The notes under the pieces were generated by a model. That model saw only the letters and a list, made by a program, of their open reading frames with translations, had not been told where the DNA came from and made no database searches. A stretch of DNA of 63,286 nucleotides, filler included, from Kipferlia bialata (taxonomy: Eukaryota): the NCBI GenBank assembly GCA_003568945.1. It is 5 parts of 5 records of this genome, joined end to end, with 100 filler letters (N's around TTAATTAATTAA, not from the genome) between each part and the next. Parts side by side here need not be neighbours in the genome. Positions count along the whole stretch, not along the records: positions 31,927 to 47,775 come from BDIP01000661.1; 4 more parts are not named here. One strand, written 5' to 3'. Both the position numbers and the translations under genes were made by a program. Below are positions 31,650-60,012 of this stretch, one piece after another. Position 1 is the first letter of the stretch; each line of letters starts with the position of its first letter.

Positions 31650-31777
31650 GTATGTATCCTCCCTCACAAGACATCCTCTCGTTCCATATCTCCTCTATCC
31701 CCCATTTACCGAACACCACTCACTATCCTCCTATAATTCTTGTCTCTTTCTATCTCTCAGTAGAGTTCCACCTCTCT

Positions 31778-31826
<49 letters not shown>

Positions 31827-31926: not shown

Positions 31927-34900
31927 CCTGTCTGAGCTGTCTCATGTAGTTGCCCACCCTGACAGGGTCCTTTCTCATGATGTCTGTCGACAGGGTGGTG
32001 ATCCTGGGGGTGAGGTGGGACTGTATTCAATTCATGCACGCTATCCATTCATATATAATGAGTCACACTCGTTATATAGGCACTATACATATAGAGTATG
32101 CCCCCTACCTCTGCATCATAGCCTGCAGAGCACTGTCAGCTGTCTCTGGCTGTGTGCCATCTGCTGACAGGACAAGAGGGTCACCAAGGGGAACGGCCTG
32201 GATGACCTAGGGTGAGACATATATACATAAGTGTATATACATATATGTATACGTAGAGAGAGAGAGAGAGAGAGAGTAGGGTAGAGAGATTGAGAGAAAT
32301 AGCAACAGGGTCACCAAGGGTAAAGTACCTTCGAGTTTGCGTCAGAGTTGACTGCAAATCTACCAATCTGCACTGTCACGGCTATCAGTACACACGCCAT
32401 GCAGGGGACCTTGGGCTTCTTAGGCACCACAGCAGTAGGGGTAGAAGCAGCAGGTGTAGCAGGGGTAGGAGTAGGGGTAGGGGTGGGTGTAGGTGTAGCT
32501 GTGGGGCTAGGGGCGGCACTAGCTGTCTGGGCCTGCTGGGCTGGGACTGTAGTAGTAGTACCAGTAGGTCCAGTGGTACCTGGAGACACTGCTTGTGTCT
32601 GCACACCCTGTACACCCTGTGCCTGTACCTGTGTAACACTAGCAGTAGCAGTGGCAGTAGCTGTAGTAACGACAGGGGATGTGGTGGCAGCTGTACCAGC
32701 ACCGGCAGGGGTAGCAGCAGTAGCGGCTGATGGAACCACCTGCTGCACGGGCACTGTCTTGGGCATAGGGACAGGGACTGGCGCCTTGTTGACATCGACC
32801 ATGACCACCATGTACACCCTGACCACTCCAGGCACCCGCCTCCCCTTCACCTTGGTCACTGCCTCACCTGATAGACAGGAGTGCAGGTACCCGGGCCATG
32901 CAGGGGTGGGGGAGGGGGAGAGCGTGGCCAGAGGGCCCGCCCAGACAGTGCTGTCTGTCAAGGGGTAGGCAGTGCGCTTGGCAGTACCAACCTGGGGTCA
33001 GAGTTACTCAAAATCACACATATATACTATATGTCTACCATGTACATACACACCTTCATCCACATCTCTGGGTCTGACACCAGCACCCCATAGGCTGGAA
33101 GCTCGGCCTTGCTCTGAGGGGTGAGTCGAGTACAAGGTTACTGATAGACATCAAACCCTCCACCCACACAGACAATTCTCAACCAACCATACCTGCAGTG
33201 CCGCCTTGACCGTCTGGGGTGGCACCAGTATATATATATCTTGTACACATTCACTCACATATATATNNCTGGGGTGGCACCAGTATATATATATCTTGTA
33301 CACATTCACTCACATATATATACTAATATATAGTGTAATATATACTACCTGTAATGCCGCCTTGACCGTCTGGGGTGGCACCAGTATAGCTGCTAGGGCA
33401 GAGGCCACATATATACATACACACATGTATACATACATAATATATATACTCTATACTCTCTACTCACCTGTAATGCCGCCTTGACTGTCTGGGGTGGCAC
33501 CAGTATAGCAGCCAGGGCAGATGCAACATCAAGGGGTAGCTGGTACAGACAGCCCATGCTGCAGATGGGGGCTAGCTTGCGCAGGATGGCACTGTAGCTG
33601 CCGATGCTGGGGTCAGTGGGCTAACATATAGTGACAAGACTACTAACTGTAAAGATGTGAGGGTGGACTAGGATCAAACCACAATACACTATATAGAGTA
33701 TACATAGTTCATTATTGCTATCCGATATACCTGAAGCCGGACTGGTTCAATGCCTTGGCAAAGGGTTGCAGGATGTTCTTGGACTCGAACCGGCCAGTCT
33801 CCTACGGTGAGAAGCAGGAATGTAAGGGCACAACTAGGTGGATATACAGTACAGTGCGGGTAAAGTACAATGTAGTGACTGTAAAGTAGAATCCTATAGA
33901 TATATGGAAATAGAAAAATACACAACCACTACCTGCAGCAGGTATGGGCACCACTCGGCCCTTGAGACCTGCATGACACCCCGGATGGCATCGCTGGGGG
34001 GTGAGGGAGAGAGAGGCACATGCCCACGATATATACATATATGTGTGTATATATGTTGCATATATATAATACGATCACATATAAAATGACACCCCGGATG
34101 GCATCTCTGGGGGGTGAGGGTGAGGGAGTACACAGTCATCGACTCAATAAATATGTATGATCACTACCCGTGTCCGAATCTGCACATGCACCACCACCTC
34201 CTTACATATAGAATAGTGTACTCATGCTCATAAAATTCCCAAATATATAATACCCACCCGTGTCCGAATCTGTACATGCCCACCATGCACTTGACCACTC
34301 TGCCACCCCTGTGCTCCACAGTCACAGCAGAGCCAGCCCTGGGGGTTAGTACTGCAGAATGCTGATATGGTATTGACTATAGAAAGTATATAAGGAAACA
34401 ACTGGGACAGTCACATCAGAACCTGCGGGTTAGTATTGTACAAATTGATGAGGTATAGTTACACTACCACTCAGTATGTGTCCCAACAGACAGAGCCCGT
34501 TCGTCTGGCTAGATATAGACAATGTAAGCTCCTCTAATCATTATTCTTAAATTATGAATCATAATACTAGAACCCATACCTCACTGGTCTTGACATCTCT
34601 ACTGGGAAGTCTGCCCCCTCTCTGGGTGCAGAGGGAGCAGGCTCGGAGGGGTGGGGGGTGAGGAGGCTGGAGTGGTGACACAGGGCAAGGGGGCCAACGA
34701 CCTAAGGGTGAGAGAGACCCAGGAAGTGTATGTACTCATTGTCTTGTTGTCTGTGCGGTGTCATACCTGCACCGTGTATTGAACTGCACTATTCATAACT
34801 AGCTATATACAAGTATCATGCCCCACCTGCACCGTGTACTGCACACACATCAGGTACCACAGGTCGGTCAGGACCTGGGGGGTCAGGGAGAGATACAAGG

Positions 34901-37900
34901 AATATATAGATACTAAGTAAATGTGTGTATACGTATATATATACCATATAGTAGGTCAGGACCTGGGGGTGAGCAATGCTAGGGGTGCAAGATGGGAGTG
35001 TACTACTATGTACGGAGATGTGGCCTATCAATGCAGCAGCTGCATACTTGACACCCACCAATCAGTACATACACTGCATCATCCAGAGATACCCAATAAC
35101 CACTAACGCCCCTATACACACATACCTGTCTATGTGGCTCCTTACTCGATACCACCGTGGGTGGCACACTCTGCTTGGGAGGGGGCTGGGTCTTGTCACG
35201 AAGCCTGGGGTGAGGGATGTGTAATAACAATAGCATCCAACGCCGTATCAATACACTAAATGTACCTCTCTGCAAATGGCCCCAGTGGGAACTGTACGTA
35301 TACCAGTACATTACCACATACGACACAAGGCAACTCATGTACCCACTAATGGTACTAAACACATCATACCTCTCAGCAAATGGCCCCAGTGGGAACTGCA
35401 TGACCTCTGGGAATGGGGCAGGGATGTCCCTAGTATCTATGGGGCAGGGGGCAGCACCAATGTCTGAGTTCAGATAGATACATGGCATATCAGATAGATA
35501 CATGGCATATACGGATATACACATATCATATACACACCACTCCACCTGGCAGCTCCGTATGCACCAGCCCCAGCTGTGCCAGTGAGTGTATGTGTATGTC
35601 TGTGTCACTCCTGGATATGGGCACTGACACACCCACTCCATAGGCTGGGAGGGGGGCATGGGTGGTGGGGTCAGAGGCCGAGGAGCACACAAACACACCA
35701 AACACAACCCTGGGGGGTTAGTGTGGAGCTATAACGTTTGTAGCAATTACACTAGTGTTACATTGTTCAAGTGTGTTCTTCTAAATTCCCATTCCCCACC
35801 TAGCCACCGATGCCGGGTCCAGTCTGACTGCCGCCTCGGTGGGGGACTCACGGAGCCACAGGCCTGGGGGTCAATAGCTAAACACAAATAGATACTCTAG
35901 TATATATATAGTAGTCCATTAAGTCATTGGGTGACTCACTGAGACCCCAACATGCCTAGGGGTTAAGAGATGGAGATAGAAACACGTATACAAAGTATAC
36001 ACAGGGTCACATGGCTGCGTGCAGAGATCTGTCTATACATATATATATATATATGAATATATCTAGTACCTGGCTGAGTGCAGTCCAGCAGCCCTATGAC
36101 ACCCTGGGGGGTCTGGACACACAGGGGGCGGCACAGACACCTGGGGGTTAGAATACATGAACATATGAATAGATTTTCATTTACATATTTCAATTACGAC
36201 ATACAATTATGTATAAAGGGTAGGCGGCACAGACACCTGGGGGTGAGAGATATGTATAGACATGCATATATACACAGACCCCTCCCACACACATATATAC
36301 ATATATTCAATTATGGCCGGTATCATATACATATAGCTATTTGAATACATACCTTATGTCATCCCCCCCATCCACCCCCTTCATGGGTGCAAAGGACGCG
36401 GCACTCACAGTGTGGCACAGGTCGGTGTACAGGGAGTGGGTCCTGAAGTAAGGGAAGAGACTATACATATATACATAAATTACAAATAGTAAGGCACAGG
36501 TCGGTGTACAGGGAGTGGGTCCTAGAGGATAAGGAAGACAATATGTATACATATATAGATTCACGTAATTCCATGTTCAGGAAGTGTACAGGGAGTGGGT
36601 CCTGGTGGGTGAGGGAAGTGTACAAAGAATTCATATACAAATGGCGCACAAATGGATTATTGAATCTCCCCCTCTCTCTATATATATCTGTCAACGATAC
36701 CTATCGTAGAACAGCATCGCCCTGGCCATGGCTGCATAGTGGTCCCCCGTGACAAAGCACTCGGGGTCAGACACAAGACGCAGCAGCACACAGCCCCTCT
36801 CTCCCTCTCCCTCTCCCTCTCCCTCTCCCTCCCCTTGTCTATCATCATACACCTCAGTAGCCCCACTACCCTCAGGTGACACAGGTGACACAGGGGGGAG
36901 ACAGGCGAAGATGCCAGTGGTGAACACCTCTGGGGGGGTCAGTGATGCATAGAGAACGGGATGTATCCATGGTACTATCGATATATACACATAGCTTGAC
37001 TATACCTAGTGATGGCGGCAGTGCCAGGGATGAGTGGGGGGTGAGGGACCCGGCAAAGGGAGACACGGAGAGAGTCAGGCCGAAACCACCTAGGGTTAGT
37101 AAGACTATACAGGCTAAAGATGATACAGTTCATAGGGTAGTATAGGCACTCACTCTGGCCTGGCCCCGGTGTGTATGCAATGTACTGGGAGGTGGAGGCT
37201 GCTCTCTCCAGTACTGATAGAGAGGCAGAGGCGTCTGATGTGGCACCTCCCTCCTTGGCCTTGGACTGACGCAGGGGGTCAGACCTGGGGTGGGTGAATA
37301 ACTATGCAAAAATTTGCCAGCAATACACCTAATAAGGGTATTATACCCTTAGGGTATATATTGTAAGTGTACGGAGATACTATAGGACCCATACCTGGGG
37401 TCACCCCCCAGACAGAAGCGCCCTGTGAGGTTGGACTCTCTCTCTAGTAGCACCTGCACAGTGGCCCTGTGGTCAGTAGGTATATCAAGTAGATAGAGTA
37501 GTAGTACTGAAATTATGCAGTATATCTTGGTATAGTAGTACCTGCACAGTGGCCCTGGGGGTCAGACAAATACATGGTGCAGTATAGTATAGTGTAGTAC
37601 AGTATAGTATAGTACAGTATAGTATAGCATAGCATTATACAGTGACCCAAATCCTGATCGGTAAAACAATGTCCTGGAGTATATATATAATATACATGTA
37701 GTCGTTTACAAGGACTACACTCTAATACACGCACTCCGTACCTGTAGAAGTGGAATGCCAAGAGTGGCTGCACAGGACATTACAAATATATATACATACA
37801 TATATATATATTCCATCATACATATATGCTTCATACCTGTAGAAGTGGCCAATGCAAACAGAAAGACACACAATAGGATACCCCTTTATAACTAATTATC

Positions 37901-40900
37901 CGTACCTGTAGAAGTGGAATGCCAGGAGTGGCTGCACTGGGCTGAAGGCAGTGAGTAAGGCACCCAGGGTGGGGACACCCATCCAGATAGGTACGCACTG
38001 CACAGGGACGCCGGATAGATCCTGGAGTAAATATCTACACAGGTAGTAGAGAGAGAGAGAGAGAGAGATGGAGACACACTGCACAGGCACACCAGACAGG
38101 GTCTGGTAAGTAGCATATCTATAAATACACATAGAGAGAGAGAATTGGTGAGAGAAGGGCACAGCGAGGGTCTGAGAGCACACACACAGAAACGGGAGAG
38201 AGGGGAAGGAGGTGGAGACATCCGTGAAGTGAGATGGGTCATACCTCCCTCTGTGCACTGGGCAGCATGGGCGTCACACCCTCATAGTGCACGAGGAGGA
38301 GGTCCAGGGACCACCTGGGGGTAAGGGGGTATGGAGTCATATACCGGTGGCATACGAGCACATATGACACACACATATAGTGTATACACATCTATGGTCT
38401 ACTATACCTGGGTGGCATGCCAGCTGGTGTGGGGTGCGAGGTGAGTCTGACGCAGCCCTGGGGGGTGAGTGGACGAAGAGAGCAGTATACACACAAACAC
38501 CAGTTGGCGTCTATATCATGACATACCTGGTCTATAACCTCCCCTGCCACTATCTATGTGTGTGAAGTCAATGTATACGAATGTACAAATAGCTAGAGGC
38601 ATCTATATATACACACATTTACCTGGTCTATAACCTCCCCTGCCTCTGTCCTGAGCCCTATCAGCACAGACTGCCCCTCCTCTAAACTCAGGGTAGGTGG
38701 TGCCACTACACCCTTAACAGGTGGCACAGATATGGCGGTGGACAGGAGGGGGAGGGCAGCTACACACCTGGGGTAAGGAGATAGTGTAGAATCTATGAGT
38801 ACGATGAGTACATATGATACTATTCTATACCTCACTGCGGCCTCTGCTGCTGTCCGGGACAGGGTGGACACCAGACATGACAGACGGTGCGGCATGTCGT
38901 CCTGGGGGTCAGGTGATGTATACACATACGGATACATAGATATATAGAGATAGTGCAGTGAATACAGGCATATACGACAGAAAGTGTGGCATGTCGTCCT
39001 GGGGGTGAGGGTATGTATACCTTGGTAGCACTCAACACATCTCGTACCTATGTATCCAACTGTACATAATATACAATTCTAAAACACATGTGTATATACC
39101 TCTGGCCTCTCAGCCTACTGAGTATGGCAGCACATGCAGTGCAAGAGGCAATACGTAGAGATACATACGTATATATCATATACATGTACACATATGTAAT
39201 ATATTGATACTTACCTCCGGCCTCTCCCCCAGCCTACTGAGTATGGCAGCACAGGCAGTGGCAGTGGCTGAGGGGGAGTCGGTCTGACTGTCTAGAAGGG
39301 CACCGACACCTAGTGTTAGCGCAAAGTGGCATCGTTCTATTTGAGCCTACCATGCTAACCACATTATAATTGAACATGTACCATATAATACATACCTGAC
39401 ATGGCCACTGTCTCGCTGTGCATAGATACATACACCCTAAGAACACACAAGTACTATATCACACACTTATACATATACGTATACTATTGTATATACCCAC
39501 CCGACATGGCCACTGTGACGCTGTGCATGTGTACATATACACCAAGTATACAGATATATACATACAATATTCGTAGCCTATAACAGTGTACACATATAAG
39601 TGTATACAGTGCATCCCCCCACCCGACATGGCCACTGTCACGCTGTGCATAGGCACCTGGACCACAGAGTCACCGGGGAGCCAGCCTGGGTGTCAGGTAT
39701 ATATAATATACTGTATGATTTACACCTGATGACAACTACATAGAGTCACTATTGGGAGCCACAATAGAGGTGATACATATACATGATACTCAGATACAGA
39801 CATATAATAGAATAGTGCTATTGATGCCATGTTGAATAGGGTAGTATTGACACATACACATACACCCACCTATTGACGCCACTGGTATGGGCAGGAGGTA
39901 TAGATCTCTATGCCCATAAACTAAACAACATAATATACGTGTATACATATATATACATATATACTAATATATATATCTATACTTATACATGCGTACCTAT
40001 AGATGCCACTGGTATAAGCAGCAGGTATGACACACTCATATTCAACTGCATACAACTCTCTCTCTCTCTATATATATATATACACCCACCTATTGATGCC
40101 ACTGGTATGGGCAATAGGTATGACACACTCATGTGGACAAGGGGCACATATACTATATATATGATAGGATATACAGATATATATGTATATACTAATATGA
40201 CTATATACCTATTGATGCCACAGGTATGGGCAGCAGGTATGACACACTCATGTGTACCAGGGGGTCAGAGGGACGGGGCTCAATCTGGGGGTGAGAGGGC
40301 TGTACAATGAGCAAATATCTATGTGTATGTATATACATGTGTGTGTGTATGTGATATGTACCTGCACACTGAATGCGAGCATCCCGTCCTGGGCCACTGA
40401 CTCTATGGAGGGTGCACCACCCACAGAGGGTCTAGAGGCCTTGTCACACCCCTCTCCCTCTCCCTCTCCCTCTCCCTCTCCAGTAGAGACTGTGCCTACT
40501 GACACAGGGGAGAACACGACAACCTTGCAGGGGGCGGGGGAGAGAGAGTAGAGGGGGTGGACTGTGGAAGAGAGAGCCACACCGCTCTCTGTCTCTCTCT
40601 CCTCCTGTGCCATGTCTGTATCACCCTCTCTCTCTCCCTCTGTCCCATTGTCTATGCACACCCTACTCTCCCCTAGACCCTTGAGGTATGTGGTTCTGAG
40701 GGCACCCAGGGTCAGACGCACAGTGCCCGCACAGGCCTGGAGTGAGGTATATATATAGATACATGTATATACCATGGTATATATAGTAGACATATATATG
40801 AGACTATAGGTCAGACGCACAGTGCCAGCACAGGCCTAGAAGGTAAGGAGGGTCAGGTATTGACTATAGTTATTGTATATGTACCTCCAGCAAACAGAGA

Positions 40901-42694
40901 TACTGGTATGTACACACATATATATGTGGGTGGGTGGGTGTTTGTATGCCTGTATCACTGTTTTACCTCTGAGACTATGGCCCCTGTGAATGACAGTGCC
41001 AGTGTGGACAGCGCTGTATGCACAGAGTGTCTCACATCAGCCAGAGCCAGGCCCCTACCTCCCCAGGGACGGGGGTCTGTAGCAGTAGTAGTAGTAGTAG
41101 TAGTAGCAGATGGTACTGAGGGTGTAGCAGCAATGGCATCTGTCTTCTTTGTTTCAGACTCACTACTACCACTATCAGTCTCTGTCTTGGGCAGCCACAG
41201 ACCCGCTGCCACATAAGCCCAGCCCTTGCCTGGGGGTGAGAGACAGATGTGGTACTATATACATGTATATATACTTATCAACAAATGTGTACTACTATAT
41301 ATTGGCTCTCCATACCTAACACAGCCAGCAGGGCATCAGCGGCCGAGGGTGTGTGTGTGGGTGCAGCCCCAGCCACTATCCTGCCCTTCACTCTACTCCT
41401 AGGGGTCCCATGTGCACTGGGGGCACTGGAGGGTGTCCTGGGTATGGGTGTGCCGGGCTCAGACTGGGAGACCTGGGTGCCAGAGGGGGTCTCTGCCTTG
41501 TCTGCCTTGTCCGACATGCACTGTAGACCTGACCCCTCGCACTGCTTCACAACCTGAGGGTGTGAGAGGTATATGTGGGTGAGAATATATTAGAATATAC
41601 ACATATATACGTGTGTGAGTCTGTGTGTTTGTATGTGTATCATACGGGGTCCTGTCACAATATAACCATGATTTCCAGCCGTGGAATATATAGAAATAGA
41701 GGGATACCTGCATAGCGATTGATGGCTGGAGGGACCCCAGGGAGAGCACCCCAGAGTTGCCATCACACACTATACCCACGTCCATGCCTGGGGGTAGAGT
41801 ACACAATCAGATACGTCATACAGATACTATATATATATATAGAGAGAGAGAGAGACAGAGAGAGACTATACCCACGTCCATGCCTGGGGGTGGGGGAGAT
41901 GAGTTACTACAGTCTACACTAAACTATAGGACTATTATATACTCCAGCCTGAGAATGGACATGCCTATGTGTATGGGAAGAACACATATACATATCCACA
42001 TTATTAGAACACATATACATATATCCACGTCATGTGGCGAAAGAGATTTGCATGCACACAAACATGTAGCTACATATATAGAAGTATCCACATACCTAGC
42101 TGGTACATGAGTCTGAGACCAATATATATATACCTATATATACCAATATACATCTAAGTACGAATATCTGTCATATTACATACATATACATATACCTAGC
42201 TGGTGCCTGAGTCTGAGGCCAATATATATCTGTGTACGTGTAAATATCAATACATCTATCGATACACAGTATCTATCTATACATACACACCTAGCTGGTG
42301 CCTGAGTCTGAGACTGGCGATGAGGCCTGACTCCTCAGACGGGAAGGACTCGGCCGGGACCTGGGGTGTTAGGCATGAACATACAGACAGATAACACTCT
42401 ACGCCACTACATTATGGGAAAATATATGTAATTATACGATTATACTATGTTATGTGCATACATATATGTACATATATCCACACCTCCTGCGAGTCCCTAG
42501 AGAGGGGTGTCACTGTCACGCCAAGACTGGATACACCCAGGGCCAGGAGGAGGTCATACGCAGCAAGGAGCCTAGGGGTGAGGATGACTGGTTGAATAAT
42601 ACTCACATCTTGTTGCATTCAGGGTTAATGTCACTCCATACCTGAAATGGCACCCCCCTGTCTCTCTGTCTCTCTCTATGTGTGTGTATATATG

Positions 42695-42727
<33 letters not shown>

Positions 42728-44403
42728 ATTCATATGTATACACTCCGCACCTGAAGTGGCTGAGCAGTGCCACCCCCCTGTGCAGGAATGGGGACAGCCT
42801 GGCTATGCCTGACACAACCAGGTGCTTGGTCCTGGGGTGAGGAGATATATATACATAGAGTCATCTCCATCTCGATACATACATTGCATACATATACACT
42901 AGGTGCTTGGTCCTGGGGTGAGGAGAGACATGTACATATATGTATATATATATATCGATATACAGGATTCACATACATACACACCTCTCAGGTTTAGTAC
43001 ATATGACTGGGTTCCCTGTCCCACTGAGTGAATACGCACATGTCACCACCAGACCACTCCCACACACCCCTCTGAAGGCTAGGGACGGGGCACGGGAGGG
43101 GTGGGACTCAAAGAGGGCACGGACCTCAGGTCTGATATCAGAGAGGTACAAGGCAGTTACCATATACATATATATATATGAATACACCCATGGATAAAAC
43201 AGGGCACGGACCTCGGGCCAGGGATAGAGAGATAGTCACAGAGTATGGATAGACAGATATGGTATGCAATAATAATTGAAAATACATTAAGTATGGCACA
43301 TCATACCTTGTGGCTGTATACACATGTGGCACGTGTGGCCAGAGGGAGAGTGTGAGTAGGGTGGGGTCAGCCCTGTGTAGCTGTAGCTGGGGTGAGAGAG
43401 GTATTGTATGGTATATATAGTAACATATATGGTATCCTATACAGTATATGTATATATACTAATGCATATTGAGAGTGTCTGCCCTGTGCAGCTGTAGCTG
43501 GGGTGAGAGGGGTATTGTATAGTATATATAGTAATATAGAGTATTATATTATACAGTATATATATATACTAATGAATATTGAGAATGTCTGCCCTGTGCA
43601 GTTGTAGCTGGGGTGAGAGGGGTATTATATAGTATAACACAGTATTACACAGTATATATATATATATACTAATGCATATTGAGAGTGTCTGCCCTGTGCA
43701 GCTGTACCTGGGTGGGGATGTAGGGGGACACGGTGCCATACACAGTGGCAAGGGCAAGCTGGATGGTAAGATGCACTCAAACAACAATACTACTAATAGT
43801 AATGATACACTATACACTCTATAACCACTTTCATGGCCTTGGCCTGGTCTATGATGAGCCTGATACATATTTATATACAATAATCCGTAAGGTATCTATG
43901 TACCAATAGGCATAATATATATGTACACTATACTACTCTCAGTCAATACCTTCATGGCCTTGGCCTGGTCTATGATGAGCCTGATACACAAATTAACACA
44001 ATATATATGTATATATATATATACACAGATACATACATATATGTATGATCAAGCCATGTACCTTCATTGCCTTGGCCTGGTCGATGATGAGCCTCACATC
44101 CTGTGTGCCACACACCATGGGCCTGGGCTTGGCCCTGGAGACACCTAGGGAGGGCGGGAGGCGCTGCCTGGACGTTAGTATAAGTATAGTATACATACAG
44201 TATAGATAGTATATAGTGTGTGTGGGGGGGGGGGAGCTTCCTGGCGTCAGTTCAAGGAGAATCACTAGCAAAGTGAACAATATAACAAAGTGAGAAAAGA
44301 GAACAGGACAAGGCCTAGTACCTCTATCTCCTACCATGTGAATATAGGCATGTAGATATATATATCTGTGCATATGTCAGTATCACCTTGGCACTCTTAG
44401 GGA

Positions 44404-44443
<40 letters not shown>

Positions 44444-47400
44444 GCTATCTATATATATATTAGTATCACCTTGGCACCCTCAGTGATGTCTGCTGCAGAC
44501 ATGACTTGACAGCTGAGGTATCAGCAGCCAGGGAAAGGGAGAGAGACACCAGGGCCTGGAGGTGAGGGTATACTCATGCACATATATTCATATACATACA
44601 TATTCATATATGTGTATATGCATATATATAATCGTCAGACACACACCTGTCTGAGTGCCTTAGGTCTCACCCTCAGCAGCGTATACTATATATAACACTC
44701 TATGTATCAATATGTATCTTCATACATATAAGTATAACATTGTCTATACCTGTCTGAGTGCCTTGGGCCTCACCCTCAGCCATGTATATACACATATATA
44801 TATACACACAATATAAATATATGTGCGTATACATGTATATAGATAGATACTATGTACACAATACCTGTCTGAGTGCCTTGGCCCTCACCCTCAGCAGCGT
44901 GTGCATATATACATAATATAAATCTATATACAGTATATATATACATCTATATACACACATACCTGTCTGAGTGCCTTGGGCCTCACCCTCAGCAGCGTGT
45001 GCACTGCACTGAAGTACACAGCCATCTGGGGGTTGAGGCCGTCCTTGGTGGGGATGACGAGGCGGATGGTGTCGGTGCCTGGGGTTGGAATATAGCTGTA
45101 CAGTCTGTAAACATATATATCCATACACTTGCTCACCTGTTGCGTTGGGTCCCTTCCGTGGCACCTGCACAGGGTATGTGGTCTCACTGTACACCTGGCG
45201 CCACAGCTGCTCGAGGGTCTTCCTGGAGAGTGAGCGGTAGAACAGGGTAATCATATAATCATATTATATGATAGATTTATTATGATAGTCCACTAACAGT
45301 GCACTAGACGCAAGCGACAAGAGATGTATACATATTTCTACACCAACACATCTATATATGTATCTCTCACTATACATATACACACACCTGAATGGCAGGT
45401 CTGCATCGAGTGCCGCCTCATGTAGTGCTGCACCTCTCTCTCTCTCTCTATATATATATATATTCATATATAAGTACACTCCCTCTACCTGAATGGCAGG
45501 TCTGCGTCTAGTGCCGCCTCGTGTAGTGCTGCACCCCCAATAGATAGGGCATCCTCCCTCACAACCACACAGGAGGGGTGGATCAACCAGCCCTGGGCCT
45601 AGGGTCAGGGAGGTATATATATATTCATTTACTCTTTATTATACTGTTACACAATATATGAGTACACACAGCTCATACCGGGTTCTCCACACTGGCAGGC
45701 AGGAATGATATGTCTATGCCCCCTGTGCTGGAGGATAGCTTGACTAGGCCGGCCTCGACCTTGAGGGACACGCCCTGGGGTGAGTGCTATATATATATAT
45801 ATATAAGATAGTATAGTATATATAGGACACTATACTATATATATGACAGCTTGACAAGGCCGCCCTCCACCTTGAGGGACACACCCTGGGGTGAGACACA
45901 TGAATATATATAGGATATATAGGATATTAATCTATACACATGATACTGAGACTGAGGCCGCCCTCCACCTTGAGGGACACGCCCTGGGGGTTAGTATACA
46001 ATGTAAATATGATGTATAATGGATATTAGTACACAATATTCAAGTATATAATTATGAGTGTTCATGAAAGAATATATAGTACCAATATAAAGTGTACCTG
46101 GCGTGAGACTTCGCATTGCGATACATATATTCACATAGGTATAGGTATAGATATCCGTTGCTTAGTATATATATAGTAATCATGGGTACATACCTTTGGG
46201 ATGACGCTGCCCATGAGCATGTCTCTCTCTCTCTCCTCCAGCCACTCTATTAGAGTGTCAGGTGGGGGGTCAATGCGGTTCTAGGGTAAGTGCCATGCAT
46301 ATACAGGGTTATGAGGGTTAGTAAGACACACACTCTACATCATTAACATACTAAGATACATTATACCCCTACCTGCAGTATCTGCCCTATGGCCCTGTAG
46401 TCCCCACTGGCCACAGTGTCAATGGCCCTGGGGGGTGAGGGAATTCAATTATATATATAGGCATGTATATATTAAATGCATATATACATTAATATTTATG
46501 GCTCTGGCGGGTGAGAAGTATGTATAGATATATAGGAATACAATCAGATATATACAGGAATGGAACATACACATACATACCTGTCCATGGGCAGTCTGGG
46601 CAGTGGCATGTATGCCCTCCTAGGGGGTTCTACAGTGGGCATCTTAGTACCCTCCTATAGGGTTAGATTATGGGAAACATTAAATATATACATATATGCA
46701 TATAATATGTATATATGCTGTATTGCAGTGGGCATCTTGGTACCCTCCTGGGGTGAGGACAATATCAAATGTATATACATCCAAACACATACTTCGTAAA
46801 TATACCAACACTGACTCGAGGCTGTTGTTGATTAACACAATACATTGAAAATTGATACTGTTATATATATACATTCCTTATCATATATAGACTCATACAC
46901 CCACCTGGGGCTGGACCTGGCTGGGCAACCCCCACACCCTTGCCCTGACACCCTCCTCACCAGTGACCAGGGAGGTACAGCCCACAAACAGACCCTGGTG
47001 TAAGGATATAAGAGATGTATATGGTAGATGTATATATATATATATGAATAGACAGTCAGTAAGGAGGTACAGCCCACAAACAGACCCTGGGATAAGTTGT
47101 ATAACAGAAAGAAATATCGGTGTATATATAGTAGTATAGTGTACACATATTTCACCAGGGAGGTACAGTCAACAAACAGACCCTGGGCGTGAGATGAATA
47201 CATAGATATATATATATATATATATGTACAGGGAGGTGCAGCCAACAAAGAGGCCCTGAGGGTAAGGATATATAAGATGTATATATGATAAATAATAAGA
47301 ATATTGTAGATGTACACTAAATATATATGTCACCAGAGGTACATCCCACAAACAGACCCTGGGATAAGATGGATAGAAGAGCATATGTCTGTACTAGAAG

Positions 47401-47712
47401 TATCCACAAACAGACCCTGGGGGTGAGTACATAGGACATTACAACATATCAATGAATGTATATGTTCTGGAATGGAAGGGTGTATACCTGCGCACTGAGC
47501 CCAGTGTCACAATACATAAGAGTACACAATAACATACAAATAGTCATAGAAATATATGCATCCAGCACAGCTCACCATGTTAACATATATGTAAAATACA
47601 CACCTGCGCACTGATGTCCATGCATGTGTCCAGTGTCACAATGTCACCCCTCGGCCCAAACTGCCAGGTGGACTTGACAATGCCATAGCCCTTGATCAAG
47701 AGGGCTATGGCT
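31927..47712 (-). CDS. MED14: Very large multi-exon gene, probable divergent Mediator subunit 14 (both ends truncated)
   Basis: About 40 or more GC-rich exons, all on the minus strand. Spliced PLPRLPMDRAIDTVASGDYRAIGQILQNRIDPPPD...MLMGSVIPKGVSLKVEAGLVKLSS resembles the MED14 N-terminal block as I recall it (RLPxFAIPxAIDVLTTGxYPRLP...LP...LTVANGRVKF). The gene itself is well supported; the identity is tentative. Confidence 0.5.
33191..47630 (-). repeat. Intronic tandem partial copies of exon edges (about 30 clusters)
   Basis: Examples: 4 copies of acctgtctgagtgcctt at ~44645/44748/44862/44961; 6 copies of cccacaaacagaccctgg-like at 46970-47420; 4 copies of gccctgtgcagctgta-like at 43370-43705. 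Confidence 0.92.
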
Positions 47713-47724
47713 GGGGGGTCAGAC

Positions 47725-47775
<51 letters not shown>

Positions 47776-47875: not shown

Positions 47876-47919
47876 GCTCTTCCCAAGGTTTTCCCCCCCC
47901 CCCCCCCCCCCCCCCCCCC

Positions 47920-48240
47920 TCCCTCTCGCTGCTTCCTTGCTCATCCATCAGGACAGCGATGTCCTCATCCACGCCCTGCTCCCATACGTGTGGTCCGAGA
48001 CCGGCATTGATGAGGTGGGGTCTTCCAAGCACCTCCACCATAATCCTTCATTCTACCAGTATACTCTAGATAAGCTGTAGTCACTCACCCCCCCCAGATC
48101 CTCATGGCCGGCACCATCATCCACCCCTCCCTCACAGAGGTCCTCAGGGGGTGTCTCTTCAACGTCAGGGCCAAGCTGCTGGCAGAGGGCGTCGAGATGA
48201 ACCCTCTCGCACGCTACATGGCATAAGTGATACAGGTCAC
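47920..48240 (-). CDS. Possible fragment of a hypothetical gene
   Basis: Two GC-rich acidic exon-like segments (LDALCQQLGPDVEETPPEDL; LGRPHLINAGLGPHVWEQGVDEDIAVL) separated by a gtgagt...ag intron. Confidence 0.3.
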
Positions 48241-48487
48241 GTATCTCAACGGGAAGTAGATTGTGTGTGTTTTCCACGGTTCCACGCCGCGGCTACCGTG
48301 GCTGTTAGTGGTTATTGAGCGTTGCCATTAGACTCATAAATGACCAGGTCTGGGTATTATTAAGCTCACATGCGTGTAGTATGGGATCGTGTATCTTGAT
48401 ATACTGTTGGAGAGAAAGGGGCTAGAAAACAAAAATGCTGTTGGCTTCCCTGTTCAGTGTCTCTTCATCACACATACACACACACAA

Positions 48488-49678: not shown

Positions 49679-49795
49679 GTACCTCTTCATCTGCTCTCTT
49701 TCATGATATATATACTTTAGATATTCCTACCCACCAGTTATGCATCATTTGATTTCATCCCCCTCTTTGTGCCCCCCCCCCCCCCCCCCTCTCCC

Positions 49796-49834
<39 letters not shown>

Positions 49835-50114: not shown

Positions 50115-53100
50115 TCTGAGATCCTCCCCACCCTCTTGATAGCTGGTCTCTCCCTGGGCCTTGCACTGGTCATACTCACAGATAAGGTATAAGTATAAGG
50201 TACTAGTATATATATACGCATATATATAATAAGGTGCATATCACATACATATTCATGTATCACTGTATGTGTGTCACATACAACTGGTCTATCCCTGGGC
50301 CTTGCACTGGTCATGCTCACAGACAAGGTATATACATACAGACATGGTTGACATAGTATAGTTTCATTGTCGGCGTATTGATGCAGATATTGCCTTGCAC
50401 TGTATATACTCACTGATAAGGTATCCCCCCCTCCCCTCACTTAGTCGCATATTCTCTCACGATAGAACATACGCCCCTTCGTATACTTCCATCGTTCATG
50501 CCTGTTCTTATACACACTGTTTCCGCGACACCCGATCTTCTCTAAGTATTAATCTATAACCTATAAATATACGAGTAGATATCTCCTATTGCCCTTCCCT
50601 CACCCCAGAACATGCGCTCATTCGTGTACTTCCAGGCAGTTGGGTTCGGTGAGTGGTGTTATCCCCCCCCCCCCGCCCCTCCGTCTCTCTCTCTATTTGC
50701 CCTTGTACCTCTGGACAGAAGTCACTACCTATGGAATATCACCACAGATATTCTCTGTTTTCCTTCTATTTCATGGCGTGTTAACCCTAGCACTCACCGA
50801 GAACTCTATTGCCTGTGCATCTCGCATATGGAAGTCTGGGTACCCAGCCAACGTATATATACTGCATGGGGCAGGTATTGATTCTATTCAGATTAGATGT
50901 AAAGGTCTAAGACTCATTGTAGACTGCATTCAACCCCCGGTACTATTGTATATTGCACGGGATGAGTGGCTGTCGCATATATATAGTGTGATAATTTCAC
51001 TTCGTCCTATCCAACCCTAACCCTCAGGCCTGGCTACGCGTAGCCCTTGATGTGATTCAGCCCTGTCACCTGTTGATTATGGGGGCAGTACTGCCCTTGC
51101 TTCTCCCCAAGGTATTGATACTATAGACTCCCTGACTCTGTTTGGACTGGATACTGAATATTCGTGAATATTAATATACATTATTCTCTCTCTGACAGAG
51201 TGACTCAAGTAACACTGTGGTGTATACATAAACATATACTTATATATATATATATATGCCACTAACCCCTAGCACTCCCGTCTCCTGAGAGCAGCCAACA
51301 GGAAGCGATGGATAATCAATGGGTTCCCATTCATACTAGGTACACTAACTATTTGCCATTGGTGCCTGCTCACTATTTGGCCTCTTGTCTCTACCCTCTT
51401 CCCTGTACCAACAGGGACTCGGTATCATAGTTTACGCATGTGTGTATGGTTTTGTATAGTAATGTCACGTTAGGCCCCCTTGTCTCCACCTTCTTCCTGT
51501 GCCAACAGGCACTTATAACCAGTACATGTATTAATATATATCAGAATGTCTACATCTACCAGATACTTACGCACAGGCCCCGTAGTTGCCACCTTCTGTC
51601 TTTCCCAGCAGGCTCTGGGCATAGGGTGTCAGGAGGGGGGCAGGGACTACTGCTGGATCGCATTCAGTGAGTGGTCTTAGTATACATAGCTCTATACTCT
51701 ACTGATATATACTATTTCTTTACATCTTTATATAGGAGAATGAATTACTGTAACGTCGTATATAGTTGGGTGGTCCATGTACATACGCCAATCCAGCCGC
51801 AGTAGAGGCCTCTCTTTTTTGATACATACTCAAGTCTGGTTGTTTGTAGCAGTGGATATTCACCCCTCAGACGCCCCCGCCTGGTACAAGTTCCTCGCCT
51901 TCTACGGGTGGATATTCCTGTTCGGGGTCGTGACAACAGGTGAAACTATGATCATGTATATTCATATTTGTATATGCTCTCAATAGTTTGTGATAAGTGG
52001 TCAATGGTGGTGACAATCTATCTAGAGAATGTATGTGTATTGGATATCTAAAGATCCTGTATCTCACCTCAGTTGGTGTCATCTACACCATAGTTATAGT
52101 CAACCGAGAGGCCAGAGTGAGAAGGATGGTACGTTCTAGATGCATCTGGAGGGACTCAAACCTGGCAGTATATGAATACTCTTTCCTATCTCTTTCTCAC
52201 GGGAGTTGTTCCCACACATATATGTATATACTATTGTGTGTGTATGTGTATTATATATGAACTATTCATTATACCCAGGATTCGCTACACTACGATATAT
52301 CATACTATAACTTCTTCTTATAGAATGGTATCTTCTATGTACATAGTGTCACTGACCCTAGCTCTCCTCCCACAATGGAGCTGACGGTGTCTCCCTAGAT
52401 CCCACGTATACTAGGACATGTTTAGATATACTCTATATATACTATATTGTAGTATCGTTTTAACCCTGACTCTAACACATAGCTGTCAAGCCATCATGCT
52501 GACGGTGTCTCCCTAGATCGCACCAGACATGATGACATCGATGGGCAGGAGACTGCTAGGGAGGAGGGAAGAATGGCTAATAGGTACTTACTTAATACGA
52601 GTCTGAGTATATGTGTGGCAAGAATAGGATTTAGACGATATATATATATTTATATATATATATACACATATAGTATATGTAGTACATTTTATCTATTGTG
52701 TACTACTTCATTCTCTCTGACCCCCAGATTCAAGAGGATGTTCATACTTCCCATCTTCAGTGCACTCATATGGACACCGCCAGCAGTCAGGAGGTATGGC
52801 TATACTGAAGTATGCACTAGTATGCTATATTCACGCATATTGTATGGAATACAGGTTCAAGAACACTGTATGTCCCCTGACCCCTAGGATACTGCAGTCC
52901 ACCCAGCCGGACAGAGTGGAGAACCCCATATGGCCCACGGTACGTGTGACTGATCATAGAACACACTACTGCATTCTCTACTGATCCTTTGCGTCATATT
53001 GTGGGTAGAGATTTGTGTCAATATGGATGTATCCTTGTCACAAATACTGTTTCGATATTATGTATATGGGTGTATTTATATATATGTGTATTGAAACATT

Positions 53101-53188
53101 TATGTATACGCGTGGATCTCACCCCCAGGTGCACATGGTCTGCAACTGGGCATATTCATATTCCCGTGTCACAAATACTGTATCGATA

Positions 53189-53232
<44 letters not shown>

Positions 53233-53947
53233 CTTGGTGCACATGTATACATATGTATATATAAATTCATCAGTCTGACCCCCAGGTGCACATGGTCTGT
53301 AACTGGGCATACTCCATTGGGCTCATTGTGATCACAGCACTCAACACCCAGGTACCGTATTACTCCACGCAATATGGATATTCGTTAGCAATTCTTTGTG
53401 TCAGAAAATATTTGACTTTGATATAGATTTATCTTCTAATGTGGTTATAGGTACTCTCAGTATTGTAGTCAAGTATGTCATGTCTCATCCCAGGTCCTTA
53501 GACGCCTCCTGTGCATGGGTGCCCCAGTCCCAGGTATATATATGCATACATATATATATATATAGAGAGAGAGAGAGCCATATATGTACTGACAATACAC
53601 TGACACTGACCCTCTTACAATACAATTTGTGGTATCTGTTGTGTATATGAATATATAATGAACTGTTGGTGCCCCAGTCCCAGGTACAGATATAAGTATA
53701 TATATGGACACACATATATGTAGTATTCTGATACTGACACCAGTATATAGTGTATGTGTATTATATGGTATATATAGGTGAATATATATAGACCTTCCTG
53801 TGCATGCATGTGGGTGCCCCAGTCCCAGGTACACTGATACTATGAAAATATCTATGATGTATGATGTGTATACAATGCCTAGACTTTGGTTGTGTTGTTC
53901 TCATCCCAGACCGTGCTACAGTCAGACAGATTCGGAGCCACGTTTAA
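50115..53947 (+). CDS. Seven-transmembrane cAMP-receptor/GCR1-like GPCR-type protein (start not visible)
   Basis: Phase-compatible exons give 7 hydrophobic helices, with ECL2 GGRDYCWI, TM5 FLAFYGWIFL, TM6 FILPIFSALIWTPPAVRRIL and TM7-H8 ITALNTQVLRRLLC. Stop at 53947. Confidence 0.72.
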
Positions 53948-54360: not shown

Positions 54361-57300
54361 TCAGTGGAACATGAAGTAGATGGGGTCCTCCACACGAGAG
54401 GCCCAGTCTTCCTAGAGAGTCAGAGTGGAAAGTGCTATGTCTCTATACTATAATCTATATCCCAAAGAGTGATACTAGAAGGTCACAAGAGGATAGTAAC
54501 TTACAATCAATAACCATACATATTCCATACGTACCACATCATGTCCCTCTTCTTCACCAATGACAAAGGCCAGGTCCTCATCCCTCTCCTCATAGCCAAT
54601 GCCCCTGAGGCCAGACATGACCTGGTTGTGAGAACGGTATCCTATAGTCATACCCAACATGATAATATACATAGACAACTACCATATATGTCTCGTATGC
54701 TGCATCATCGACAAGATACCTCCAGCACTAATCTCTCCATATCTATACACACACTATATGCACAACCTGCTAGATCCTTAGCAATTGCCTTGTAAGTTTC
54801 GTATGCCTCATCGTCTACTATTACATAGTACACAGCACGTACATAAAAGGCAAATATATATGTATATAAATACAAACAGTAATATATGCTTTTACCTTGT
54901 AAGTCTCGTATGCCTCATCGTCCAACGTAGTTTGTCACTATCAATATTCTCACATCTATATGTGTACTAAACTAATTTCATATATATCATTAGAAGTAGA
55001 CTATATATATATATCACCTTGTAAGTCTCGTATGCCTCGTCGTCCACAGTAGTATGTCAACATCTATATATTCTAATCTATATGTGTACATATATATCAT
55101 TAGACGTAGACTATATCACCTTGTAAGTCTCGTATGCCTCATCGTCTACAGAGCCAGTAGCGAGGGTATAGGATCCTTCATACAAGGTATCGGTCTCTGT
55201 ATGCATCATTAGTACTGATATTGCCCACTACCTTGTAAGTCTCGTATGCCTCATCGTCTATAGTGCCAGCTGAGAGGTAGATCTTCATGTCTGTGTCCAA
55301 GGTGGAGGATGGGATGACAACATTGTACATGTCCTAGGGTGGGTATCACATCTAAGTTAGTAATCATTTCGGAAGTGTTCACTTTATAGGTTTTTCAATC
55401 ATTTATTAGTAGAGAATAGTCAATGTACTTGTCCTTGGGTATATGACACACACAGATAGATAGTACATAGCATGGATTCCAATTACTTCATGTATATATA
55501 TATGTGGAGAGGATGACAATGTGAATGGTCATATATATTTACCTCATAGAGAATATGCATGTCTCTATACCACATATACGGGTAAGAATTACCTCGTTGT
55601 TCCATGTGTACACTGCAGACATGGCACCCATATATGTGTAGTGAATACTTCAATATACATTCTATCCTACACATACACATATAGTAGATACTTCTATGCT
55701 GTTCTTACCTCGTTGTTCCAGGTGAATATTGAGGACATGGCACCAACCCCACCCCAGGTGTCACCATCCTGGTTCCAGGGGCCCTTGGCAACACCTGGAG
55801 TAAAGTAGTATAGATAACAAATGTGATGAGCAACCGGGTTGTCACACTTGTACACTAGAATACTATATTAACCTGGGTAGCATGGGATGAGACCACCAAC
55901 CTCTATATGTCATAGGAGCCCCAAGATAAATGTGGCTATATAGAAAACAGGATGATGCCACAATGTATACAGTATACATTGTATACATACACCATCATAC
56001 TAACCTGCGTAGCATGAGATGAGACCACCGAGGTCAGAACACAATATATATATTCTACTATATACATATACATATATGTATATACATATATATATATACA
56101 CATATATGCACTCTAACATTACCATACCTGCGTAACATGAGATGAGACCACCGAGGTCAGAGCCAATGAGCATGATGTCCTGGAGTGAGTGGAGACATAC
56201 ATGTATATAGTATATAGTATATATATGTATATGTATGTCCTCAGCATAATGTCCTGAGGTGGGAGAAGAACCAGTGTAGAAAATGGTATTGTTTGTAGAA
56301 CAGAGCACATAGAATGCTAAAATGTGTGAATGAGTACACCGCTGGGTTAACTCCAATCCACCAACTATATACTATACTATCACTATATATGTATTCATAA
56401 TAGAGATATATGTATATATATATATATATATGAACATACCTCTGGCTTGACGTCCACCAGTCCCTCTCCCACCATGGTGTCCAGGGAGGTGAGAACAGTG
56501 TCTAGGGTAAGAGATATTCTATGAATACATATATACCATATCATGGAATATATGTATATTGCCTATATATGAGGATATATGAATTCTGTCCCACCATGGT
56601 GTCCAGGGAGGTCAGCACAGTGTCTGCACAATATAGTATATACATAGAAATGATGATAGAGATACAGTTCATTGGATGTGAGAACACAGTCTGGGATAAG
56701 GAATGAATTCAGACATGAGCCTCGTATTTACATTGTATCATCATGTAGTCTATAAGTGTACTGTCACTGTGGCTTGAGTGTATGTCTACCCGCTATGAAT
56801 GAGAGGTATCTGTCCCCCATCCTACCCTGTCTCATGTATGAGTACTATAAAATATCATATGTATACTCATACACTGTATAGTGTACGTATGTTTACACAT
56901 ATACAACTAGTGTCCCTTACCTGCAATGAATGAGAGGTATCTGTCCCCCATGCCACCTTCCCCTGTCACCACATCCTTGGAGTAGGTGTACTCGTTGGTA
57001 CGGTCATCTATGGTAAGGCTTGAATTCAAATATTGTATAAGTCTTGCGTACACATGTCAGATGTGTGTATATACTATGTCCTTGGAGTAGGTGTACTCGT
57101 TAGTCCTATCTTCTGAGGGTTAACTCAAGTGTGTACATATACACATATATTGTTACTGTACTACATTCATATATACGCATTCATATATATATACGTATAC
57201 ATATATATCTACAAGCACCCATGTGTATGTGTATATGTATGCACACAACATAGCACCTGTTGCGAATAGACCCACAAGCACTAGGTCCTGCACCACTGCT

Positions 57301-57383
57301 GCCTCACTGATCAACTCATCGAGGAGGGAGGACATGTCCCAGGAGCCATTGAGGACACATCTATAGTATGAGATATATATATG

Positions 57384-57419
<36 letters not shown>

Positions 57420-58280
57420 AAGAGGGAGGGAGGACATGTCCCAGGAGCCATTGAGGACACAACTGGAGTCAGAAGGTGAGAGCGAGTATGCTTATATATA
57501 TAAATACAGAGAAAGAGAGAGAAAGAAAGGGCTAGGTACCTCCCAGGAGGCATCAAGAACACCCCTAAATCAGCTACTCAAAATATAAACATATACATAG
57601 AGATAACACTCACGTGTCTGTGGGACATGTCAGGGTAGAGAGAGAGCGCGCAAGGGAGACAGATATGCATAAGAGTATATATATATATGTATCTAGAGAG
57701 AGGGAGAGATACTCACGTGTCTGTGGGGCATGTGTGGGCAGCAGTGTTGTCTGGGGTGAACAGGTCCTGAGGGTAAGTATACATTCCTACACACACACAC
57801 ATAAATATATATATATACGGAGTGAGAGAGAGAGAGAGACAGTAGTCCAGAACATGTCATGAGTATGGTAACTCTCAAATTTGTTCACATACCGAACCGG
57901 TTCGGTATCTTCACATACTATGCAAATCACAGTGTATATCATACGTCATACCTGCCCATCGTGCATGACTACCAAGTGTATATATATATATATGTATATA
58001 TACTAATAGTTTACAGTATACTACATACTATACACACAGGAGTATATGCAATATATGTATAATATATACACGGTACCTGTCCATCGTGCATGACTATCAA
58101 GTGCCTGGCCACAGCATATGGGTTGGCAAGGAGAAGAGGGGGGAGGTACACGCTGCAGTGAGTATACACTATGTATGTGTATGCGTATATATACATATGT
58201 GTGTGTGTGTGTATACAAATATATATTTGTATATATATATGAGCTGCACAGGAGCAGGGGGGAGATAGACGCTGAATACC

Positions 58281-58316
<36 letters not shown>

Positions 58317-60012
58317 AATCAGAGTCGGGAGATATATACTGCAGTGAGTGGAACTGGCATGAGAGAATGAGTACTCATACACTGAATGCATAGAGATACA
58401 GGACGGTAGAGTGACGTACTTGTAGTGCCTGTCGTTGCCGAGCTCAGGTGAGTGGATGGGTGTGGAGGAGTAGAACCACTCTCCCTCTGGGGGTGAGACA
58501 GGCACTCACACATGCTATATCTAGGCATAATGTATATATAGGTATATACAACTGGAGAGTATATACATATATATGTATCTCAGGGATCTCCCTCTGAGGG
58601 TGAGAGAGTGCACCCACATATTCTCACAGGTAAAGTTGAGAAAGGCATTGAATATTGTGTATGTGTACTTACCTATCCCAGCCTCCCTCCAGTATGGTGT
58701 GACAGTGGCTGTGTCCACACGTATACTTATATAATTGCTTTGTATATTATGATAATTATTGATATTGATATGGATATATATCTATACCTATCCCATCCTG
58801 TCTCCAGTATGGGGTGACTGTGGCCCCACATGTATATATGCTTCATGTGTCTATTATATATCATTGTGTATGTATATCCATACATACATACCTATTCCAT
58901 CCTGCCTCCAGTATGGTGTGACTGTGGCTGTATCCACACCCTCCTCCACCAGCATGTTGTGACCGGTGCAGGCCTCGGTCCTGACATTAATAGAAGCACA
59001 TACTATATAGTACTATATGGTACTACATAGTATATATATAGTATATAGAGTGTAGAGTAGAAGTGATTCCACACCCCGTGACCGGTACAGGCCTGGGTCC
59101 TAGTATCAGTGCAGTGTAATGCTATCTGTACATATATATATATCTATATTATTGGGGGGAATGGACTAGTATCTCAAATATACTCCCCCTCTCTCTCACT
59201 ACCATATATATACGTATGGTACATGTGTCTCTATGTACCTGGTTGAGTGTCCCTCTGATCAAGATATTAACCATACCTATGTTATGCAGTATATGGTTAA
59301 ACTTACTATATATACACAAATAGTATATACACATAGTGTATCTATGTACCTGGTTGAGTGTCCCTCTGTAGCACGGGTGGTAATCTTGACCTGGGTATCA
59401 GTGCATGCAAAGAGACATTTTCCATTTTCACAAAATCAAAAATACATTCATATATGTACATGTATGTAAATCGTATTCAATAGTAATAAACACATGCTCA
59501 GAGGAGATTTGGACTAAGGTATATTCAGATAGACAACAGAGGACATATATACTACCATACCTCAAGACCCTTTGGGGTTGGGGAGTCTCTCTCTCTATAG
59601 TGTTATACATCATACTATATACAGTATATACATATACCCATGTATATATATACTACCATACCTCAAGACCCTTTGGTGTTGGGGTAGTGCCACTGACAGT
59701 AACCGTCCTGGTATGTGAGAGAGCACACCATAAAGATATATTGAGATGCCGAAGGACTACTAGAGAGGTGGGGGGGGGAGTAAGAGAGTGTGTGAGTGAG
59801 ATATAGCATACACAGTATACTGAACCCACCATGTGTTATTGTCTCTCTTTGTCATGGGCATGGGGGGCTTCCAATACTCTTCATTTGTATAGACCCCATA
59901 CTATATAGCATGTATATATATGAATATACACACCATGCATACATACCATGTATCCTTGTCTGTCTTAGTCATGGGCATGGGGGTCTTCCATCCGAGGGGG
60001 GAGACACCGCCT
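54361..60012 (-). CDS. Alpha/beta-hydrolase, bacterial putative-esterase-like (5' truncated)
   Basis: HSPELGNDR...VYLPP...LIVMHDGQDLF...W...DDRTNEYT...GGMGDRYLSFI...LIGSDLGGLISCY...GAMSS...KIYLSAGT...EEGHDVEDWASRV...FMFH*. An N-terminal segment (SPLGW...DTWTVTV) resembles a starch-binding-type module. Confidence 0.82.

Follow-up and report, generated by a model that had tools for sequence, protein, structure and literature searches.

Tandem repeats that run across exon-intron boundaries have been described in amphioxus, where 'mirage' minisatellites occur in the globin genes BflGb6 and BflGb9, in Adh3, in troponin C and in PGBD5; they have been proposed as a route to new introns (PMC3087553, PMC3902484). 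Here we describe a related feature in the free-living fornicate Kipferlia bialata, whose published draft genome is a short-read SPAdes assembly reported to hold 124,912 GT-AG introns (PMC5874029). The window under study, that is, the whole stretch of 63,286 nucleotides that was analysed, consists of five contigs of this genome joined by N spacers (1-15864, 15965-31826, 31927-47775, 47876-60121 and 60222-63286). Many introns of its third and fourth contigs contain 'echoes', by which we mean direct copies of the neighbouring exon edge together with its splice signal. A copy of an exon's 3' end and the GT behind it is called a donor echo; a copy of a branch point-AG and the exon start behind it is called an acceptor echo.

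The layout of these arrays is not new, contrary to the first-pass annotation of the window, which knew of no counterpart. Mirages and echoes alike are tandem copies that span an exon-intron boundary, occur at either boundary, carry duplicated splice signals and leave normal splicing undisturbed. They differ in host, amphioxus in the one case and a unicellular metamonad in the other, and in extent: mirages are described at single loci, whereas echoes occupy about half of the introns over tens of kilobases. Moreover, BflGb6 mirage units are 81-100% alike over their length, whereas most Kipferlia spacers are unalignable and likeness of whole units is found in a few arrays only. We therefore do not file the echoes as mirage minisatellites, although their splicing behaviour is alike. 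Unlike the echoes, mirages are credited in the accessible text neither with a silent-site bias nor with a separate consensus splice signal in each copy.

Three further comparisons are useful. The 37-bp variable number tandem repeat of human F7 intron 7 begins with a unit that spans the exon-intron boundary; its downstream pseudo-donors are silent and the most upstream donor is chosen, as in Kipferlia. However, the F7 pseudo-sites are identical in sequence, whereas Kipferlia donors vary from copy to copy, and the acceptor arrays require that the last acceptor be chosen (PMC1557585). The Rogers model, in which a tandem duplication at an AG/GT proto-splice site creates an intron, finds a likeness in the start of a single intron (intron 12 of gene A, below), which opens with a GT-bearing copy of the next exon start; the remaining echoes lengthen introns that already exist (PMC2891723). 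Short direct repeats at intron borders, which lie near splice sites and which their authors tie to break repair, are pairs of 4-30 bp between the two borders of one intron, whereas the Kipferlia arrays are repeated copies of one junction (PMC11782384). Our literature search, whose coverage of subscription journals was poor, turned up neither a description of echoes in Kipferlia nor one of coding constraint in copies of this kind. What sets the echoes apart is the region-wide extent, the silent-site constraint and the separate splice signals of each copy; the junction-spanning layout is known.

Most of the evidence comes from gene A (31928..47710, minus strand), whose model is an automatic prediction from which hand curation removed mini-exons derived from echoes. 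It has 49 exons and 1889 codons with 0 stops, and is open at both contig ends. Its joints agree (5/5) with those of an RNA contig over 38075-39925, and the share of 37701-47700 that falls in exon-internal 31-mers is 0.230 under the model, versus 0.23 of sampled words found in the presumed RNA run. A Pfam search of 12 exons gave no match, and homologue searches with two exons returned nothing. The fourth contig carries gene B (54361..60010, minus strand; esterase-like by eye, 15 modelled exons, 5' end beyond the contig) and gene C (50115..53947, plus strand; membrane-protein-like by eye, 14 modelled exons). Both predicted models read through without interruption, and a Pfam search of 13 of their exons produced no match.

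We scanned for echoes with ungapped alignments anchored at each exon-intron junction. The raw scan of gene A gave 46 hits over 24/48 introns, from which we left out three rows: a 12-nt hit lacking GT, a misregistered hit, and the copy that opens intron 12. There remain 43 echoes in 23/48 introns, or 29/48 introns (one of them weak) when gapped or older echoes are included. Thus the 'most introns' of the first-pass annotation amounts, in gene A, to about half to 60%. The individual copies it had listed are all present: donor copies at 33191/33347 versus 33466, at 43828/43948 versus 44060 and at 44645/44748/44862 versus 44961, and acceptor copies at 45848/45955 versus 45737 together with five at 47060-47420. 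Gene B has 21 echoes in 12/14 introns, five of them in intron 13, and gene C has 7 echoes in 4/13 introns. In total, genes A, B and C, on two contigs, contain 71 echoes in 39/75 introns, 43 of them donor and 28 acceptor echoes.

The polarity of the copies is without exception: both 5' and 3' intron boundaries are duplicated, and in gene A opposite exon edges gave 0 hits, as did shuffled pairings of exons and introns (0 hits in 30). An annotation-free scan of contigs 1, 2 and 5 (34.8 kb) found 0 echoes. The corresponding raw counts for contigs 3 and 4 are 98 and 40; internal GT sites swell these figures, which we give only to set them against the 0. The feature is regional, and is not confined to one gene.

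Echoes are 11-62 nt long (median 28), spacers 42-134 (median 74) and whole units 58-157 nt (median 104); we looked for a bias toward multiples of three in unit length and found none. The far ends of echoes, that is, those away from the splice site, are sharp and variable, as one would expect if each arose in an event of its own. In gene A, intron length equals 121 nt plus 94 nt per echo (r = 0.91), which bears out the earlier suggestion of a duplication process centred on splice junctions that lengthens introns.

Before asking what the copies mean, we consider whether they are real. Haplotypes stacked by the assembler would display just such allele-like differences as we report below. We therefore turn to contigs derived from sequencing reads, compared over 38075-39925 only (1851 nt of gene A's 15.8 kb). 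A DNA run, X1, may be the source of the assembled sequence and so is not a second sample, a point in favour of stacking; what it shows is that the junction words occur in reads. Its contig of 1480 nt, built from 31-letter read words, covers 38075-39527 with 0 other letters, 0 gaps and a depth of 431. Because it spans four echoes, mid-exon far ends included, without a difference, we take the echoes to be real DNA, and the tandem copies not to be assembler stacking. No DNA joint that skips a repeat unit was seen over 38075-39527, though such contigs drop rare variants; no DNA contig matched 39563-39925, a gap to which we attach no weight. In addition, X1 contains 0.97 of the sampled words of 37701-47700, while far-end-junction words make up 6.6% of that stretch, and echoes end in mid-exon, unlike separate haplotypes. 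Stacking is thus very improbable. The assembly may rather err in the other direction: three short X1 records at 39485-39552 have a depth of 2042-2700, 5-6 times that of the flanking contig, and have other flanks, and the excess likely represents about five further near-identical units of one echo array that were collapsed. The assembly therefore probably under-counts identical units, and the echoes studied here are biased toward diverged ones.

Splicing was read from run X2, which we take, as a guess, to be RNA; its one contig carries five GT-AG joints, is 1213 nt long and has a depth of 120, with 0 other letters against the true exons. It skips the echoes at 38527, 38998, about 39083, 39396 and 39501, and its loose ends, on both sides, agree with the true copies of the next exons. 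The joints and loose ends thus indicate that the outermost donor and acceptor are used (5/5 joints; rare isoforms would be dropped from such a contig).

This result bears on the possibility that echoes are in use today: as decoy or recursive splice sites or as direct-repeat pointers for excision of DNA or RNA, all three of them proposed in the first-pass annotation, or as alternative splice sites; such use would put echo codons into protein. Such use would directly entail coding-type constraint and intact splice signals. However, the single RNA contig shows outermost sites only. For only 5/71 echo sites would use of the site keep the reading frame and bring in no stop, and unit lengths have no bias toward multiples of three. 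A branch-point motif ahead of AG/GT, as recursive splicing would have it, is found in 3/43 donor echoes, and a GT directly follows 2/28 acceptor echoes. Adjacent intron-rich contigs, moreover, have no echoes. Neither recursive splicing nor productive alternative splicing is general, and present use is decidedly improbable as an explanation of the echoes. Pointer-type excision was not seen in the DNA contig, from which rare forms would be lost.

The most informative property of the echoes, which the first-pass annotation missed, is that they differ from the exon mainly at silent sites. When echo-versus-exon differences are read in the exon's frame, 164 changes in 2061 aligned nt comprise 112 silent ones, 52 that change an amino acid, and 0 stops; from base types alone, 43.6 silent changes would be expected. 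For a neutrally decaying duplicate, compared with an exon that gathers only silent changes, we derived an expected silent fraction of about 0.44 (2f/(1+f), with f = 0.28). Counting unique changes, 101/151 are silent overall (p 1e-8 against this null), and 55/68 in gene A (p 5e-10). Changes can also be assigned to the echo side, namely where a farther echo keeps the exon base, and 15/21 of these are silent (p 4e-5); we rely on this count because a looser one, 32/49, can include changes on the exon side. In terms of divergence, gene A has a silent value (pS) of 0.206 versus an amino-acid-changing value (pN) of 0.016, and gene B has 0.233 versus 0.056. From the low pN we read that most of the divergence of an echo predates its time as junk.

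These numbers allow us to weigh the simplest account, in which plain junction-spanning tandem duplications decay neutrally, polarity being a survival bias and the TA-rich spacers mutating fast. It accounts for the polarity, for the step of about 100 nt and for outermost splicing; one echo carries a 4-nt deletion, and genes B and C alone do not reject it. The gene A and echo-lineage counts, together with the absence of stops, stand against it, as does an amino-acid-changing divergence of 2-6%. We can reject neutral decay for the large gene A, though not for the small genes B and C, and as a general account we regard it as improbable.

The splice signals tell the same way against neutral decay, since donor and branch-point positions are changed in most echoes and yet are consensus-like. 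GT is retained in 42/43 donor echoes and AG in 27/28 acceptor echoes. A branch-point motif precedes 19/28 acceptor echoes, versus 59/75 true acceptors and 47/664 other intronic AGs; only 2/28 acceptor echoes are identical to the true acceptor over -14..-3, so that the earlier observation of a branch point-AG variant peculiar to each acceptor echo is supported. Likewise, 5/43 donor echoes are identical to the true donor at +3..+6; position +3 is changed in 18 echoes and is a purine in 16 of those.

The intron flanks of echoes are, by contrast with the coding part, near saturation. They are related to the true flanks above background (p 0.01 for donors and 0.0005 for acceptors; mean percentile 0.61 and 0.71), but only 15/71 are clearly homologous (at or above the 95th percentile of controls). 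One might suppose from such unalignable spacers that foreign half-introns or mobile elements had inserted at splice junctions with long target-site duplications. Yet the spacers form no family of similar, introner-like elements in a search against the window, their hits being to microsatellites and to their own arrays; the flanks are related above background; and a silent bias on the echo side would be left unexplained. This explanation is barely credible.

An exon conserved as protein, splice signals that are consensus but different, and a near-saturated intron are together what one would see on comparing versions of a single junction that have diverged while still working. In other words, the silent bias and the intact signals make the echoes look like junctions that were working until recently in other alleles, and other alleles are the simplest source of several working versions. 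Our preferred explanation, held with modest confidence, is therefore that the echoes are pieces of junctions from other, diverged working alleles, inserted in tandem into the intron by homology-primed repair or unequal exchange.

By the route we envisage, a break would occur in an intron that has diverged from its homologue so far that the two cannot pair. One end of the break would invade the other allele at exon homology and copy that allele's intron plus 10-60 nt of the far exon, after which the copied end would be joined to the other, untrimmed broken end. The resident junction would remain outermost and working, and the captured junction would come to lie within the intron; the mirror event would give acceptor echoes. 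Any product in which an entire exon was doubled or the outer site displaced would be purged, and some units would be amplified afterwards as ordinary tandem repeats. Such one-sided repair would yield the polarity, the sharp but variable far ends, the allele-like copies and the unlike spacers. The alike spacers of a few arrays show that plain tandem amplification also happens. One-sided invasion, or aborted synthesis-dependent strand annealing finished by end joining, has been studied at induced breaks in plants and flies. The insertion that it leaves is templated by homology and is precise at one end and non-homologous at the other, as we infer for echoes, and we know of no report in which it builds splice-junction arrays. 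The route would fit a lineage that leans on modified homologous recombination: according to one report, metamonads lack canonical non-homologous end joining and rely on a modified homologous recombination, and some of them have all or part of the alternative end-joining pathway (PMC8516963).

Several observations weigh against an origin by allele capture. The same report states that sex is unobserved in metamonads, although meiotic genes are retained (PMC8516963). A silent divergence near 0.2 between alleles would require an extremely diverse population or hybrid ancestry, and neither the DNA nor the RNA contig of the 38075-39925 stretch contains other letters that would betray a second allele or strain; two scans of metagenomes likewise found no relative and no second allele. 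Genes B and C, taken singly, do not exceed the 0.44 null (32/60, p 0.09, and 14/23, p 0.08), and amino-acid changes are only marginally conservative, which is not significant (p 0.07). Substitution at 21% with two indels would leave 98% of flanks recognisable, far more than the 15/71 found, so that the pace of intron divergence would have to exceed that of silent sites by far. Within an array, the nearest echo on average differs less from the exon (0.050) than the farthest does (0.082; 16 arrays, p 0.013), as serial duplication also predicts. Nor do the far ends show an enrichment of TA runs that would support the break-site step. Breaks at TA repeats were considered and set aside as unsupported, the flanks at far ends being less AT-rich than mid-spacer (0.67 vs 0.74, 68 spacers).

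The strongest competitor to allele capture is a mirage-type turnover with cycling. Here, the arrays begin as local tandem duplications of roughly 100 nt. Echo and exon then misalign, and the resulting exchange or conversion keeps promoting echoes to the working position, so that selection removes damaged echoes while spacers drift for long. This account is favoured by arrays whose spacers are alike (77-87% in gene A intron 12, about 73% in gene B intron 13), by the DNA records of 5-6 times the depth, which suggest a collapsed near-perfect array, and by the closeness of the nearest echoes to the exon. In addition, silent changes come slightly nearer to the junction than changes of amino acid do, pN being 0.022 within 10 nt of the junction and about 0.04 beyond (p 0.03). 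On the other hand, we reason that conversion by an exon of the same chromosome would predict no silent excess above about 0.44, and that a silent divergence of 0.2 could not persist if exchange were so frequent that selection could act. Nor is there an eroded margin past the echo ends (3.83 for an echo's own margin vs 3.75 for controls, 70 echoes). We consider cycling rather unlikely by itself; it overlaps with allele capture, and merges with it when homologues take part.

Allele capture suggests a larger statement, which we put forward only tentatively: parts of the Kipferlia genome would grow their introns by stacking allele-captured junctions, with up to six versions of a junction in one genome, each having its own working splice signal. 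If the allele origin is true, the genome of one strain documents both the exchange of alleles and a very high silent diversity in a group where sex is unobserved, and the length of an intron is a count of repair events. Past allelic diversity and the cryptic sex of a metamonad could then be read from the arrays, and their growth would be a way, not described before, in which introns expand, turn over and occasionally arise across whole regions, through homology-primed repair without canonical end joining. Whatever their origin, non-expressed copies under protein-coding constraint demand an explanation, and they bear on the question of whether Kipferlia's many introns are old and static. Even on a weaker reading, nature would offer hundreds of introns in each of which several intact donors or acceptors compete. 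With these one could test how a reduced spliceosome chooses its splice sites, and how it comes to choose the last acceptor. There is a practical consequence as well: gene prediction in echo regions can call false mini-exons, as the automatic model of gene A did.

We now describe the arrays of gene A, all on the minus strand, from its 5' end onwards. Intron 1 (46995..47603) has five acceptor echoes (47416, 47358, 47255, 47182 and 47086), the branch point-AG being different in each, and an additional 11-nt donor echo at 47488. Intron 2 (46655..46904) has an acceptor echo at 46747, and intron 5 (45775..46193) has two, at 45983 and 45885. Intron 5 also contains an isolated branch point-AG/GT at 46097 (minus strand) that matches no exon edge, and which may be either a recursive site or an echo that has degenerated. 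The donor echo of intron 7 (45223..45488), at 45388, is 47 nt long with 3 silent changes. Donor echoes occur also in intron 9 (44556..44962), at 44865, 44750 and 44647, and in introns 10-11 with exon 11 (43759..44469), at 44387, 43950 and 43829.

Intron 12 (43387..43707) is made of three units of about 110 nt, whose spacers are also alike, at the percentages given above. In the modelled junction, a copy of the next exon start, different from it by one base, supplies its opening dinucleotide as the predicted donor GT. It is the only intron of gene A (1/48) that opens in this way. Judged from its sequence, intron 12 is a candidate for an intron that was gained, or regained, at a proto-splice site.

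Introns 13-20 with their exons (40737..43306) hold acceptor echoes at 43218, 42912, 41883 and 40835, donor echoes at 42196 and 42096, and a gapped donor echo in intron 15. Intron 22 (39686..40208) has donor echoes at 40090, 39997 and 39870, and the loose end of the RNA contig there fits the true exon copy and not the echo. The donor echoes of intron 23 (39310..39622), at 39501 and 39396, are both skipped by an RNA joint; the deep DNA records at 39485-39552 also belong to this intron. Introns 24-26 with their exons (38458..39214) contain an acceptor echo at 38998, a gapped donor echo near 39083 and a donor echo at 38527; RNA joints skip them all, and the one DNA contig spans them with 0 differences. 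Introns 29-42 with their exons (33994..37905) have donor echoes at 37837, 37742, 35266, 34767 and 34168, and acceptor echoes at 37554, 36601, 36521, 36236 and 34106. Finally, intron 45 (33114..33467) has donor echoes at 33349 (62 nt, 5/5 changes silent) and 33193. A perfect 53-nt pair (33214-33321) in this intron flanks an 'nn' gap at 33267, a repeat that the assembly left unresolved. In intron 47, at 32300-32328 (minus strand), bases 14-34 of the next exon are copied almost at the very start of the intron, and this copy lacks a branch point-AG of its own.

A few observations concern the other genes of the window. Upstream of gene C, at 49942-50152 (plus strand), three near-identical CT-rich acceptor units of 59-75 nt precede the first modelled exon; they are outside the statistics given above. 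Within gene C, 51370-51520 and 52360-52410 (plus strand) contain older echoes, still in frame but with several amino-acid changes, that resemble distant versions of exon starts. The same contig has a candidate Snf7/ESCRT-III-like gene at 48460-49700 (plus strand), for which one exon matches Pfam PF03357 with E 0.008, below the cut-off. On contig 1, a Rab GDI gene (9620-11820, plus strand) has about 11 short introns of 45-110 nt with 0 echoes, and one of its exons is 100% identical to a Kipferlia bialata protein; the remaining contigs have the same splice signals, from which we take them to come from this organism too.

The contigs differ also in composition. The TA dinucleotide content of contigs 3 and 4 (31927-60121) is twice that of contigs 1 and 2 (1-31826), and their introns are longer too; contig 5, like contigs 1 and 2, has half the TA content of contigs 3 and 4. 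This contrast suggests chromosome domains that differ in repair or recombination. Within contig 3, TA content climbs toward the 5' end of gene A.

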